From: a virus
Taxonomy: Duplodnaviria; Heunggongvirae; Uroviricota; Caudoviricetes
Length of the DNA stretch: 18,144 nt
Virus record (IMG/VR): IMGVR_UViG_3300029843_000306
Reading direction: 5' to 3' (one strand)
The notes beneath the pieces were generated by a model. That model worked only from the letters and a program-made list of their open reading frames with translations. It was not told the DNA's origin and ran no database searches. The translations under genes were made by a program, and so were the position numbers. Each line of letters starts with the position of its first letter. Position 1 is the first letter of the stretch. Positions 2,727 through 12,785 of the stretch are shown here, one piece after another.

Positions 2727-3877
<1,151 letters not shown>

Positions 3878-3899
3878 TGTTCATTCCACGGCCAAAAAC

Positions 3900-4075
3900 A
3901 GAGAAAGGAAACGACAGAGGCCCAAAAGCTCGTTTTCAGCACCTGTCGTTTCCTTTCTTTTCAGGGGGTATTTTAAATAAAAACATTAAGTTACGACGAA
4001 GAAGAACGGAAATGCCTTAAACCGGAAAATTTTCATAAATAGCGAAAACCCGCGAGGTCGCCGCCCCGTAACCTG
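3900..4075 (-). other. cos site: cosN cohesive end (GGGCGGCGACCT, complement of 4055-4066) with the flanking cosB/cosQ-like region
   Basis: Minus-strand sequence ACGGGGCGGCGACCTCGCGGGTTTTCGCTATTTATGAAAATTTTCCGGTTTAAGGC… sits directly upstream of Nu1 and matches the lambda left end as I recall it. Confidence 0.8.
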
Positions 4076-4265
4076 TCGGATCGCCGGAAAGGACCCGCAA
4101 AATGATAATAATTATCATCTGCATGTCACAACGTGCATCTACGCCATCAAACCACGTCAAATAATCAATTATGACGCAGGTATCATATTAATTGATCTGC
4201 ATCAACTTAACGTAAAAACAACTTCAGACAATACAAATCAGCGACACTGAATACGGGGCAACCTC

Positions 4266-4499
4266 ATGTCAACGAAGAACAGAACCCGCAGAACAACAAC
4301 CCGCAACATCCGCTTTCCTAACCAAATGATTGAACAAATTAACATCGCTCTTGAGCAAAAAGGGTCCGGGAATTTCTCAGCCTGGGTCATTGAAGCCTGC
4401 CGCCGGAGACTGTGCTCAGAAAAAAGAGTTTCTTCTGAAGCAAACAAAGAAAAGAGTGACATTACTGAATTGCTCAGAAAACAGGTCAGACCAGATTGA
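4266..4499 (+). CDS. ynfO: Small putative ribbon-helix-helix DNA-binding protein
   Basis: 77 aa; N-terminal basic stretch, then a beta-strand/helix/GSG-turn/helix pattern (RNIRFPNQMIEQINIALEQKGSGNFSAWVIEACRRRL) typical of Arc/CopG folds; fold is inferred from sequence pattern. Confidence 0.65.
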   Translation: MSTKNRTRRTTTRNIRFPNQMIEQINIALEQKGSGNFSAWVIEACRRRLCSEKRVSSEANKEKSDITELLRKQVRPD

Positions 4500-4556
4500 A
4501 GCAATTTAGATAATCGTGCAGACTACGCCCCCTCATATCACATGGAAGGTTTATCT

Positions 4557-4967
4557 ATGGATCAGGTAGTCATTTTTAAACAAATATTTGATAAAGTTCG
4601 AAACGATTTAAACTATCAATGGTTTTATTCTGAGCTAAAACGTCACAATGTCTCACATTACATTTACTATTTAGCCACAGAGAATGTTCATATTGTATTA
4701 AAAAATGATAATACAGTGTTATTAAAGGGCCTAAAAAACATTGTGTCTGTCAAATTTTCAAAGGATAGGCATCTTATAGAAACGACCTCTAATAAGCTGA
4801 AATCCAGAGAGATCACATTTCAGGAATACAGAAGAAACCTTGCTAAAGCAGGAGTTTTTCGGTGGGTTACAAATATCCACGAACAAAAAAGATATTACTA
4901 TACCTTTGATAATTCATTACTATTTACTGAAAGCATCCAGAAAACTACACAGATCTTACCACGCTAA
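4557..4967 (+). CDS. ydfO: DUF1398-family prophage protein
   Basis: 136 aa from the ATG at 4557 (GGAAGG Shine-Dalgarno upstream); sequence recognised as YdfO; the track ORF starts 5 codons earlier. Confidence 0.8.
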
Positions 4968-4975
4968 ACCATAAC

Positions 4976-5015
4976 GTCCGGCTTCTCTCACTCCTGAGCC
5001 GGACTGCATTGGTTT
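4976..5015 (+). terminator. Candidate hairpin terminator after ydfO
   Basis: 8-bp stem GTCCGGCT (4976-4983) / AGCCGGAC (4997-5004) followed by a moderately T-rich tract. Confidence 0.35.
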
Positions 5016-5118
5016 AATAAAAACCATCAACAATTGTGATTTAGATATTCGGAACCATTCAAATATAACAAAACCCCGTAAAAACGAGGTTTATGGATAA
5101 ATTTTATTATTGAATACA

Positions 5119-5766: not shown

Positions 5767-5965
5767 TCACTTTTTTAAATCCAACGACAGACGGCTGGCA
5801 TTTAAGTATTGTGAAATATTATCAAATGTAATCATCATTGATTTACAAAAGATACATTTTGCCCCGAAAGGATTCATGTCAGAAACATCAAAAGATGATG
5901 TTCTATACTGGGAACCATGACAACACGGGCATCTAAAGTGAATATGGTTTGTAATATTGTCTACC

Positions 5966-6178
5966 TCAAAGCGCCACTACATGAACAGCGGCAGGACCTT
6001 TAGGTCCGTTCTCAATACCAAATTCAACTTCCTGATTCTCAGTTAATGTTTTGAAATCGTTGCTCTGAATTGCTGAGAAATGGACAAACACATCTTTGCT
6101 GCCATCTTTCGGCGTGATGAAACCAAAACCTTTTTCAGGGTTAAACCATTTCACTAAACCAGTCATTTTGTTAGACAT
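5966..6178 (-). CDS. cspI: Cold-shock protein, CspA family
   Basis: 70 aa; RNP1/RNP2 motifs (KGFGFI, VFVHF); sequence recognised as CspI; long AT-rich 5' leader ending AAAGGTAATAATTATG. Confidence 0.9.
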
Positions 6179-6540
6179 AATTATTACCTTTTGAAGAAAT
6201 TAGCCCTTGGGCAGAATGGTCCGAAAAAAAATATCAGAGAGAAAAACCAACAAGGAAATCTCAAGAGGTACAAATAATAAAATTATAACAATGACTGCTT
6301 CAGATAAATTTGTAACAAACCAGAACACCATTAACGCATGATTAACCACCCATAGCAAGGATTACTTTTGTAAAGAAAAACACAGCAATGAAAGAATAGC
6401 TTTATTTATTAATAAAACGTGTCATTCTGATTAAGACCTTTTATCTTACCCTTAAGATTTCAGGAATTTTGGCTCATGGAAGAGTCCTTTTTATTTAAAT
6501 TTTACATTCCGCGATGTAAATGTTCCGATTTAATATTACC

Positions 6541-8570: not shown

Positions 8571-8849
8571 GATTGTGGTGCTTTTTGTGGGAGTCATCCA
8601 CTTACGCACTTTGTTTTGCCATGCCAGCAGTTAGCTTCTGCTGTAAAACTATTCATGCAGCAAACCTGCACTTCACCACAATGGTTAGCATACTTTTCCT
8701 GATTAAGATTTTGCCAAATATGCTAGCCATTGTTTCATGTATTGGACCTCCTTACTTTTTATTAAAGAGATCCAATATTCACTACTCTGTCCGTATCTCT
8801 ACTCAGGCATCAGCCTTCTTCGTTATCGTATACAGACGAGCGATGAATT

Positions 8850-9065
8850 TTAATCAGTAATGATGACATTTGCTGCTGCAGGACCTTTAGCACCACTCTC
8901 TATAGAGAAGGTAACCTTTTGACCTTCAAATAAGGTTCGATAATTATCATTCTGAATCGCAGAAAAATGCACAAACACATCTTTACTACCATCAACAGGA
9001 GAAATAAAGCCGAAACCTTTATCAGCGTTAAACCATTTTACTAAACCAGTCATTTTATTTGACAT
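8850..9065 (-). CDS. cspB: Cold-shock protein, CspA family
   Basis: 71 aa; sequence recognised as CspB; RNP motifs present. Confidence 0.9.
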
Positions 9066-9365
9066 TCTACATTCCTTAACTTGAGCCTTTCGGCATAAAT
9101 GGTTTGCATAACAGAAACGACTTCGTACTTAATTGGAGAGACTCAAAGAAGGAATAAGTGAATAACACCTGAAATGAGAACTGCTTTAGTAAACTACTTC
9201 GTATATCGTCTGTTCTTCAAACCGACGCAATCATTAACGCATAGTTGAACATATGAAGCAATGTTTATTTTAGACATCCAGCCATCTTCAACCCCATCAA
9301 AAAACTATAGCTTTCTTCAGGAACGTGTGTATAGTGCGCCAAGTTATCAGTATTAAGGAATTTTT

Positions 9366-9578
9366 TTGTCCCGTAAAATGACAGGAATTGTCAAAACCTT
9401 TGACGGCAAAAGCGGCAAGGGTCTTATCACCCCATCCGATGGTCGTATCGATGTCCAGCTTCATGTTTCAGCGCTCAATCTCCGCGATGCAGAAGAAATT
9501 ACCACCGGATTACGCGTGGAATTTTGCCGGATAAATGGTCTGCGTGGCCCTTCAGCTGCCAATGTTTACCTTTCATGA
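9366..9578 (+). CDS. cspF: Cold-shock-domain protein, divergent CspA-family member
   Basis: 70 aa; divergent from cspB; degenerate RNP1 (KSGKGLI); sequence recognised as CspF. Confidence 0.85.
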
Positions 9579-9632
9579 GCTATATTAAAGCTTTAATTTC
9601 AGGCCCCATCGGATCACACATGGAGAGTTTTT

Positions 9633-9722
9633 ATGAATAACCCCGTCTGTCTTGATGACTGGTTGATTGGCTTTAAAAGCTTATGCTGTACTTTGGCCGT
9701 AATAGCTCTGCTAATAATATAA
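9633..9722 (+). CDS. Candidate 29-aa hydrophobic small protein ([29 protein letters not shown])
   Basis: ATG at 9633 preceded by GGAGAG at about 7 nt; absent from the ORF track (too short); single predicted TM-like segment; no homology evidence. Confidence 0.3.
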
Positions 9723-9867
9723 TAAGCAGACTCATTGTGTTTAGGGACATTGTACTGGAAGAAAACATTTTAAACATCAGGCAAATAACCAAGTCACCAG
9801 CTAAATAATAAGTTAACAGACATGAGTCCCGGGATGAGATTCAACATTACCATTGCCCCATTTAAAG

Positions 9868-9900
9868 CACAAAACCCGCTCATCAGCGGGTTTTCTACTT
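9868..9900. terminator. Hairpin terminator, candidate tR' of the late operon (also usable as a cspF terminator on the + strand)
   Basis: AAACCCGCT-CATC-AGCGGGTTT (9872-9893) with T-rich flanks on both strands; lies about 40-60 nt downstream of the candidate late promoter. Confidence 0.5.
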
Positions 9901-9934
9901 TTTCTTAACGTCGGGTATACAAAGCCCATCGTTG

Positions 9935-9970
9935 AAAAAATTTTATCCATATTTTTTGAAAAATGCAAAC
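9935..9970 (-). promoter_or_regulatory. Candidate late promoter pR' (sigma-70) just downstream of Q
   Basis: Minus strand -35 TTGCAT (complement of 9963-9968), 17-nt spacer, -10 TAAAAT (complement of 9940-9945); position matches lambdoid pR'/qut. Confidence 0.5.
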
Positions 9971-9999: not shown

Positions 10000-10752
10000 T
10001 TATCTCGTCACCTTCCTCAATTGCGCTTCCGCGTATGCTTCTTCCTGCCAGCACTTTGTTACCAGTTTACCAATGACGTCCGCATACCCCTTATACCACT
10101 GATAATCGGTCAGGTCTGGTACCAGCTTCTGGACATGACGTCGTGCCAGCGTGGTCGGTAAACGACTAAACCGGTTTCCATTACAACGCCCACAAATCTT
10201 ATATACCGGTACGCCATGAAACCGGGTTCTTTTTTCATCCAGAACAATCCCTTTACCCTTACACCCTCTGCACGCTGTGCTGGCTTCGCCCTTACCATGG
10301 CAATGCTGACATAGTTCCTTCACCCATTCTTCCTTGATTACAGATTCCCCGCGTCTGTAGTGTTTCACCACTTCGCGCAATACATTATAAAATCCCGTAC
10401 CTGAACAATGCTCACAGCGAGCCTTACTTGCCGCAGACCTGGAGTAATCAGCAAAGGCAAAACTCACGAGGTAAGGAATAATCTGTAACCGGATTTCTTC
10501 ACTCAATTTGTTCAATGTCGGGTTATCCAGTGCCATCGCGTAATTTAGCAGGCCTTCAATCGCAAACTGAGGGTCCTGAACACCAACTTTTGCCAGAAAT
10601 AAGGCCAACCCAAGTGGTGCTTTCGACTGCACCATCCCCTGCGCTGCCATTACATCCGTAATTGTTAAACAACCGGTGCCTGTCGCTGGAGCGTCATCGC
10701 TCAATTTTGGAGATTTTGGGGAGTAATATTTTGGTAAGGCTTCAAGGTTCAT
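10000..10752 (-). CDS. quuQ: Late-gene antitermination protein Q (phage 21/82-type)
   Basis: 250 aa from ATG 10752; multiple CxxC zinc-binding motifs (CEHCSGTG, CQHCHGKG, CRGCKGKG, CGRCNG); sequence recognised as QuuQ; track ORF has a 10-codon extension. Confidence 0.9.
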   Translation of the reverse strand: MNLEALPKYYSPKSPKLSDDAPATGTGCLTITDVMAAQGMVQSKAPLGLALFLAKVGVQDPQFAIEGLLNYAMALDNPTLNKLSEEIRLQIIPYLVSFAFADYSRSAASKARCEHCSGTGFYNVLREVVKHYRRGESVIKEEWVKELCQHCHGKGEASTACRGCKGKGIVLDEKRTRFHGVPVYKICGRCNGNRFSRLPTTLARRHVQKLVPDLTDYQWYKGYADVIGKLVTKCWQEEAYAEAQLRKVTR

Positions 10753-12629: not shown

Positions 12630-12785
12630 TTACTCCTCAGGTTCGTAAGCTGTGAAGACAGCGACCTCCGTCTGGCCGGTTCGGATTCGTACCTCGCAGA
12701 GGTCTTTCCTCGTTACCAGTGCCGTCACTATGACGGTTAAACAGATGACGATCAGGGCGATTAACATCGCCTTTTGCTGCTTCAT
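12630..12785 (-). CDS. hokD: Hok-family type I toxin (small membrane peptide)
   Basis: 51 aa translated by hand: MKQQKAMLIALIVICLTVIVTALVTRKDLCEVRIRTGQTEVAVFTAYEPEE; absent from the ORF track; downstream of relE as in relBEF. Confidence 0.85.
   Translation of the reverse strand: MKQQKAMLIALIVICLTVIVTALVTRKDLCEVRIRTGQTEVAVFTAYEPEE

Follow-up and report, generated by a model that had tools for sequence, protein, structure and literature searches.

Does the short open reading frame that follows cspF in a lambdoid prophage encode a protein, and what might that protein be for? The frame occupies positions 9633 to 9722 of the window, by which we mean the whole 18,144-nucleotide stretch of viral DNA analyzed here, and the original prediction described it as an unannotated hydrophobic ORF of 29 codons. 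The word "unannotated" proved wrong. The window is 100% identical to Escherichia coli K-12 MG1655, in which the region is the cryptic lambdoid prophage Qin, and the ORF is annotated there as ynfS (b4750, YP_009518791.1, "protein YnfS", NC_000913.3 1642122-1642211). The same peptide is listed as hypothetical protein WP_120795389.1 in PGAP genomes and is identical to the YnfS entry in Table 1 of VanOrsdel 2018 (PMC6001520). It also has a dedicated 29-position Pfam family, PF23697 ("YnfS"), which it matched end to end, residues 1 to 29 on profile positions 1 to 29 (80.9 bits against a cutoff of 27, E = 4.7e-23). In sequence, length and position, between cspF and ydfT/quuQ in Qin, we found no difference from the reference gene. 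Taking identity and anatomy together, we are highly confident that the ORF is ynfS, a verified small protein gene of Qin. The gene and its ribosome-binding site are as follows.

9633 to 9722, plus strand: ynfS coding sequence, 29 codons and stop (ORF list, NC_000913.3 annotation, PF23697, PMC6001520 Table 1)
9622 to 9627, plus strand: Shine-Dalgarno sequence GGAGAG of ynfS (sequence, duplex energy, invariance across the 134 sampled copies, lack of pairing in the centroid fold)

Published data establish that ynfS is a genuine translated small ORF. Two of the checks that the original prediction proposed, start-site mapping with retapamulin and Onc112 and epitope tagging, had already been published with positive outcomes: both inhibitors gave strong start peaks at ynfS (Weaver 2019, bioRxiv 10.1101/511675), and a chromosomal YnfS-SPA fusion was detected by immunoblotting in a study that also scored ynfS as positive in tetracycline ribosome profiling (VanOrsdel 2018, PMC6001520). 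In both reports, the evidence comes from normal growth in LB, with tagged YnfS detectable and initiation strong (PMC6001520; bioRxiv 10.1101/511675). Two overlapping ORFs, at 9673-9792 on the minus strand and 9683-9808 on the plus strand, were rejected, as neither has a Shine-Dalgarno sequence and 9633 is the start that the published mapping supports; the plus-strand ORF is annotated in one phage record. Elsewhere in the literature, ynfS is placed among the uncharacterized Qin genes in a reassessment of the E. coli y-ome (PMC11551758) and falls in a tiling-array cluster of transcripts lowered by fluoride (PMC10100675). cspF is among the AZT-induced, LexA-dependent genes that lack a LexA box, in a report from which ynfS is absent (PMC11228462).

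Since the ORF was already named and experimentally confirmed, its detection here is a rediscovery, and the gene, its annotation and its translation, being already known, carry little weight as a discovery. What the present analysis adds are the limits of the cassette that carries ynfS, a bidirectional terminator in common with a lambda-type pR', a narrow range and an absence of constraint at the amino acid level. For a y-ome gene, this provides context: a mobile cassette of 571 bp links ynfS to cspF and lies antisense in the path of late transcription of viable lambdoid phages.

The translation signals bore out the original prediction of a start codon with a well-spaced Shine-Dalgarno sequence. 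The ATG at 9633 is preceded by GGAGAG with a gap of 7 nt between GGAG and ATG, the duplex with the anti-Shine-Dalgarno tail of 16S rRNA reaches -6.4 kcal/mol (-6.1 kcal/mol for cspF's own site), and the frame closes with tandem TAA TAA codons. The mRNA segment 9579-9900 is not unusually structured (folding z = -1.34), and both the Shine-Dalgarno sequence and the AUG are unpaired in its centroid fold. The peptide also agreed with its earlier description as 29 residues with a hydrophobic segment and three cysteines (C6, C18 and C19). A short polar N-terminus, MNNPVCLDD, is followed by a hydrophobic segment from W10 to I29, of which the uninterrupted run after K15 is only 14 residues. The 19-residue Kyte-Doolittle mean over residues 11 to 29 is 2.46 (GRAVY 1.47), above the value of 1.6 that is the conventional threshold for a membrane helix. 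On hydropathy, we consider it rather probable that YnfS is a tail-anchored peptide whose single helix inserts in the inner membrane, with the N-terminus in the cytoplasm. We also searched the 18-kb window, on both strands, for ORFs of 25 to 60 codons whose start fits GGAG-N5-9-ATG and which encode a strongly hydrophobic 15-mer. Only ynfS and hokD (~12633-12785, minus strand) qualified, the latter being a true type I toxin gene and an internal positive control, and 200 Markov-1 random sequences contained 0.02 such ORFs on average. The combination found at 9633 is more than chance.

The order of genes across the locus is cspB, cspF, ynfS, quuQ/ydfT and ydfU, and cspF and ynfS together form a discrete unit within it.

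8850 to 9065, minus strand: cspB, the next gene past the cassette in the direction of the late transcript (annotation, Rfam cspA thermoregulator over the leader)
9366 to 9578, plus strand: cspF, upstream cistron of the cassette (annotation, Pfam CSD match)
9285 to 9855, no strand assigned: 571-bp cspF-ynfS indel cassette with promoter region, cspF, ynfS and a 133-nt 3' spacer (absence of the whole block in L130)

In NZ_CM143255.1 (L130), the cspB leader, up to window position 9284, is joined directly to position 9856, just before the terminator described below, and this junction defines 9285-9855 as a single insertion/deletion unit. A second lineage (L129) has lost 258 bp in a clean deletion (9569-9826), and with them the end of cspF and the whole of ynfS. 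The cassette is carried by the phages PhiR42_1, PhiR63_1, HannyBb and 2H10, and it sits with the pR'-proximal terminator on one side and the cspB and lysis genes on the other, in reverse orientation to the late operon. Its GC content of 41% is not distinct from that of the neighboring AT-rich intergenic DNA. cspH, the chromosomal paralog of cspF, shares 82% nucleotide identity with it only across 9354-9568; the homology ends at the csp stop codon, and we found no ynfS-like ORF downstream of cspH. At the cassette junctions, 9285-9296 and 9850-9860, we noted a short CCAT...CCCCAT microhomology (left, ...CCATCTTCAACCCCATCAAAA; right, ...CCATTGCCCCATTTAAAG), which may have mediated insertion or deletion of the cassette.

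Within the cassette, ynfS starts 54 nt past the cspF stop codon, and promoter and terminator scans detected no promoter- or terminator-like site between the two genes. From this spacing and the uninterrupted interval, we infer that cspF and ynfS are co-transcribed as one bicistronic mRNA, in which ynfS would be the distal cistron. A consensus scan called no plus-strand promoter upstream of cspF, and the 80 nt upstream of the gene are nearly invariant among 126 copies. As a side observation, cspA-type thermoregulator leaders (RF01766) were found on the minus strand upstream of cspB (8834-9226, 158.8 bits) and upstream of a presumed cspI (5939-6324, 112.8 bits); cspF is without a comparable long leader and gave only a 14-bit partial match to the same model.

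The other boundary of the locus is formed by the late-transcription control region of the prophage.

10000 to 10752, minus strand: quuQ/ydfT, lambda-type antiterminator Q (annotation, Pfam Antiterm PF03589, PDB 7ubm/4mo1 lambda Q, E = 5e-36)
9940 to 9969, minus strand: late promoter pR' of Qin, -35 TTTGCA, -10 TAAAAT, spacing 18 (promoter scan, alignment to lambda pR')
9925 to 9934, minus strand: initial transcribed sequence CAACGATGGG, identical to lambda pR' (alignment)
9871 to 9894, both strands: bidirectional intrinsic terminator that ends the cspF-ynfS transcript on the plus strand and is the pR'-proximal tR' equivalent on the minus strand (both-strand evidence)

The Qin pR' lies on the minus strand just past the quuQ stop codon, its -10 element being followed by TTTTTCAACGATGGG, and the region aligns with lambda pR' (TAAATT-TGACTCAACGATGGG) in a match that includes TCAACGATGGG. 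Transcription would start near 9933. In lambda pR', AACGAT is the sigma70-dependent pause element where Q loads, and we take the AACGAT within the initial transcribed sequence of Qin to be a putative element of the same kind. On the plus strand, the terminator scan identified a hairpin at 9871-9894 (AAAACCCGC-TCATCA-GCGGGTTTT) followed by CTACTTTTTC; on the minus strand, the same interval folds into a 10-bp stem followed by UUUUGUGCUUU (z = -4.7). The hairpin is conserved in diverged alleles, and since it is terminator-like on both strands, we regard it as a bidirectional terminator common to pR' and the cspF-ynfS unit. A short pR' transcript of about 70 nt would end there.

Because pR' fires on the minus strand with the terminator and then ynfS in front of it, Q-dependent read-through would be antisense to ynfS. 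On prophage induction, Q-modified RNA polymerase would pass the terminator and transcribe antisense over ynfS and cspF toward cspB and the lysis genes. The original prediction had proposed such an antisense transcript from pR'. Its geometry, comprising a lambda-type pR', a terminator and the orientation of both, held up; the read-through across ynfS and cspF is what this arrangement would predict. Separately, the pR'-to-terminator transcript (9869-9935, minus strand) folds far better than its shuffles (z = -4.7) and aligned over the full length of the Rfam isrK model (1-77 of 77) far below threshold, at 16.6 bits against a gathering score of 50 (E = 0.45). IsrK is an Hfq-binding small RNA of the Salmonella prophage Gifsy-1. 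In Qin, the transcript may correspond to lambda 6S RNA or to IsrK, or the match may have arisen by chance.

We next considered how widely ynfS is distributed. The segment 9579-9900 was present at a coverage of at least 80% in 1406 of 5426 complete E. coli genomes (~26%), and taking the best match per record, 1293 matched at an identity of at least 99% and 333 at 90 to 95%. A tblastn search found the peptide in four sequenced temperate phages, the same four that were named above, always between cspF and Q. A scan for the back-translated motif DDWLIGFK covered one genome per species for 185,579 species, a design that diverged homologs without the exact motif would escape. Of its 56 matches, 53 were rejected because the motif lay inside unrelated larger proteins, mostly of Acidobacteriota, which left one record of Shigella flexneri and two of E. 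coli as true matches. NCBIfam gave no match to YnfS, PHROGs only an insignificant one (E = 0.12) and PADLOC none. By these searches, ynfS is restricted to lambdoid prophages and phages of Escherichia and Shigella. Two of the phages, PhiR63_1 (L006, ~3340-5060) and HannyBb (L008, same span), have ~1.7 kb of extra DNA between the terminator on the ynfS side and Q. It is annotated solely as many tiny hypothetical ORFs, and a tRNA scan of this DNA in PhiR63_1 found no tRNA genes.

Conservation of the ORF and its start codon in related prophages was a further check named in the original prediction. We assembled copies from IMG/VR and from fetched loci, using an anchor outside ynfS on the 3' end of cspF, and obtained 134 usable copies. 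The intact 29-codon frame was present in 131 of them, as 10 peptide alleles; the start codon was kept in 133 and the Shine-Dalgarno sequence was identical in all. The frame and its start are thus conserved with three exceptions, a nonsense allele, K15* (AAA>TAA), in two copies and ATG>ATA in one, and these natural alleles could serve as ready-made controls.

The substitutions themselves told a different story about the peptide. All 12 in ynfS are nonsynonymous (M1I, N2D, N3K, P4S, D9G, L11M, I12T, K15*, S16I, A22T, V23L and I29M), and with an expected synonymous fraction of 21 to 27%, a count of zero has a probability of ~0.02 to 0.07 under neutrality; this test draws on a shallow set of ~30 haplotypes, has low power and counts alleles rather than independent events. 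Segregating-site density was 12% for ynfS, 11% for the spacer upstream and 9% for cspF; variation is much greater in the downstream spacer, part of it due to haplotypes with unrelated sequence at that place. Because every change is nonsynonymous, the peptide shows no sign of purifying selection; the pattern could reflect relaxed constraint, diversifying selection or small-sample noise. None of the alternative frames or strands made the polymorphism convincingly rich in synonymous changes, the best being frame +1 with five synonymous and seven nonsynonymous changes. All three cysteines and the DDW motif are almost invariant, most replacements are conservative, and the hydrophobic tail is preserved. 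We also observed that cspF itself looks weakly constrained, with 9 synonymous and 11 nonsynonymous segregating changes, including Q31*, among 123 copies, and that some lineages carry a truncated, frameshifted cspF.

What, then, does YnfS do? Most likely, it is a small membrane peptide, tail-anchored and produced together with CspF. In normally growing K-12, ynfS is translated, and its Shine-Dalgarno sequence is strong and open; it would be the distal cistron of a cspF-ynfS mRNA, which would end ~150 nt downstream at the bidirectional hairpin that would also terminate the short pR' transcript. We put the odds that the peptide has a selected function at about even. The conserved full-length frame, start codon and Shine-Dalgarno sequence, the near-invariant cysteines and the viability of the phages that carry the gene speak for it; a dN/dS that is not below 1, the natural knockouts and deletions and an extremely narrow taxonomic range speak against it.

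The alternative that survives best is that ynfS is translated without a selected function, as a young, lineage-restricted ORF that arose in the 3' region of the cspF cassette. A functionless ynfS would then persist because the cassette is young and nearly clonal. The ratio of 0 synonymous to 12 nonsynonymous changes argues for this, as do the nonsense and start-loss alleles, a polymorphism density equal to that of flanking noncoding DNA, the deletion variants without ynfS, the lack of a homolog outside Escherichia and Shigella or at the cspH locus, and the lack of an NCBIfam, PHROG or PADLOC family. However, this account sits less well with a Shine-Dalgarno sequence and start codon kept in 133 of 134 copies and a full 29-codon length kept in 131, with almost invariant cysteines and DDW and mostly conservative replacements that spare the hydrophobic tail, or with carriage by viable temperate phages that have limited genome space; in addition, ~30 haplotypes give the substitution test little power. 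We consider this neutral origin a serious contender, to which we would give somewhat less than an even chance.

The cassette can also be compared with phage morons. Morons downstream of pR' include genes of the lambda bor/lom type and the stx genes of Stx phages. Like them, cspF-ynfS is a discrete cassette, present or absent among related phages and placed between the late promoter and terminator and the lysis genes: 9285-9855 is absent from NZ_CM143255.1 and present in four phages. It likewise resembles them in having a terminator and in its expression in a lysogen. The hairpin at 9871-9894 is a clear terminator, the conserved 80 nt upstream of cspF yielded no consensus promoter, and expression from a repressed prophage is seen in the published detection of YnfS-SPA in MG1655, in which Qin is cryptic (PMC6001520). 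Unlike these morons, the cassette runs against the late operon, uses one bidirectional terminator in common with pR' and has a GC content that does not stand out. On a functional version of this comparison, YnfS would be a moron peptide that acts at the membrane as a modulator (e.g., of holin or lysis timing, superinfection exclusion or envelope physiology), is under diversifying selection and is silenced in the lytic phase, when Q lets antisense transcription pass the shared terminator. We regard this full account as unlikely.

A slightly fainter prospect is that translating ynfS matters and the peptide does not, with ribosomes shielding the 3' end of the cspF mRNA from Rho or RNases, or with the convergent unit acting as a brake on pR' by transcriptional interference. 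This would suit an unconstrained amino acid sequence in a frame whose Shine-Dalgarno sequence, start and length are kept, and a cspF-ynfS unit that converges on pR' at a common, bidirectional terminator. However, the nonsense allele K15* is tolerated, prophages without the cassette keep the same arrangement of pR', terminator and lysis genes, and the distance of ~150 nt from the ynfS stop codon to the terminator leaves no obvious coupling.

The original prediction raised a further reading, that of a type I toxin; the role of antitoxin would fall to the pR' transcript or to a dedicated small RNA. YnfS resembles the toxins of such pairs (HokD in the window; the Ldr, Ibs, TisB and ShoB families) in its small size, hydrophobic helix and prophage location. 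Its size and hydropathy fit, although any membrane activity is a prediction from hydropathy; the same prophage carries hokD, ynfS sits where Q-dependent read-through from pR' would be antisense, and the minus strand has a weak promoter-like site (9743-9714, 9/12 match). However, promoter-like sites are not in excess in the ynfS region (6, against a shuffle expectation of 3.9 ± 2.4), and the candidate -10 of this one is altered by A9719G in about a third of alleles. Terminator scans found no minus-strand terminator that would bound a small RNA over ynfS, and Rfam found no known RNA there, either at gathering thresholds or at E <= 1. The search for an antisense small RNA that the original prediction had called for came back empty at ynfS, in that promoter scans, terminator scans and Rfam reveal no gene for an antisense RNA equipped with a promoter and terminator of its own. 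The pR' transcript, for its part, stops at the terminator before reaching ynfS unless Q is made. Nor is translation of ynfS repressed in the manner of type I toxins, given the unpaired Shine-Dalgarno sequence and AUG in an mRNA with z = -1.34 and the strong initiation and detectable protein in unstressed growth (PMC6001520; bioRxiv 10.1101/511675). No match to Hok, Ldr, TisB, Ibs or another toxin family was obtained, Pfam at E <= 10 returning YnfS alone and PADLOC nothing; natural nonsense and start-loss alleles occur; and the literature that names ynfS yielded no report of growth arrest or killing by overexpressed YnfS. Finding neither an antisense RNA gene nor an occluded ribosome-binding site nor a match to a toxin family, we consider a type I toxin highly improbable.

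As a small membrane peptide, YnfS is closest to the small single-helix inner-membrane proteins of E. coli (the Storz and Hemm sets, e.g., AcrZ), which also have fewer than 50 amino acids and one hydrophobic segment and, like YnfS, were discovered by tagging and ribosome profiling in the publications that report it; AcrZ served as the level standard in Weaver 2019 (bioRxiv 10.1101/511675). YnfS differs from proteins such as AcrZ in its very narrow distribution and in a hydrophobic segment that reaches the very C terminus, which makes it tail-anchor-like. Other short ORFs likewise flank genes of the cold-shock family, namely those for YnfU (beside cspB) and YnfR (beside cspI) in Qin and for YmcF (beside cspG), but these proteins have no sequence similarity to YnfS. 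YnfR is cold-induced, and nothing comparable is reported for YnfS (PMC6001520). Elsewhere in the window and unrelated to ynfS, Rfam returned a full-length, gathering-level match to IS009 (RF02111) at 1273-1471 on the minus strand, with a score of 220.9 bits.
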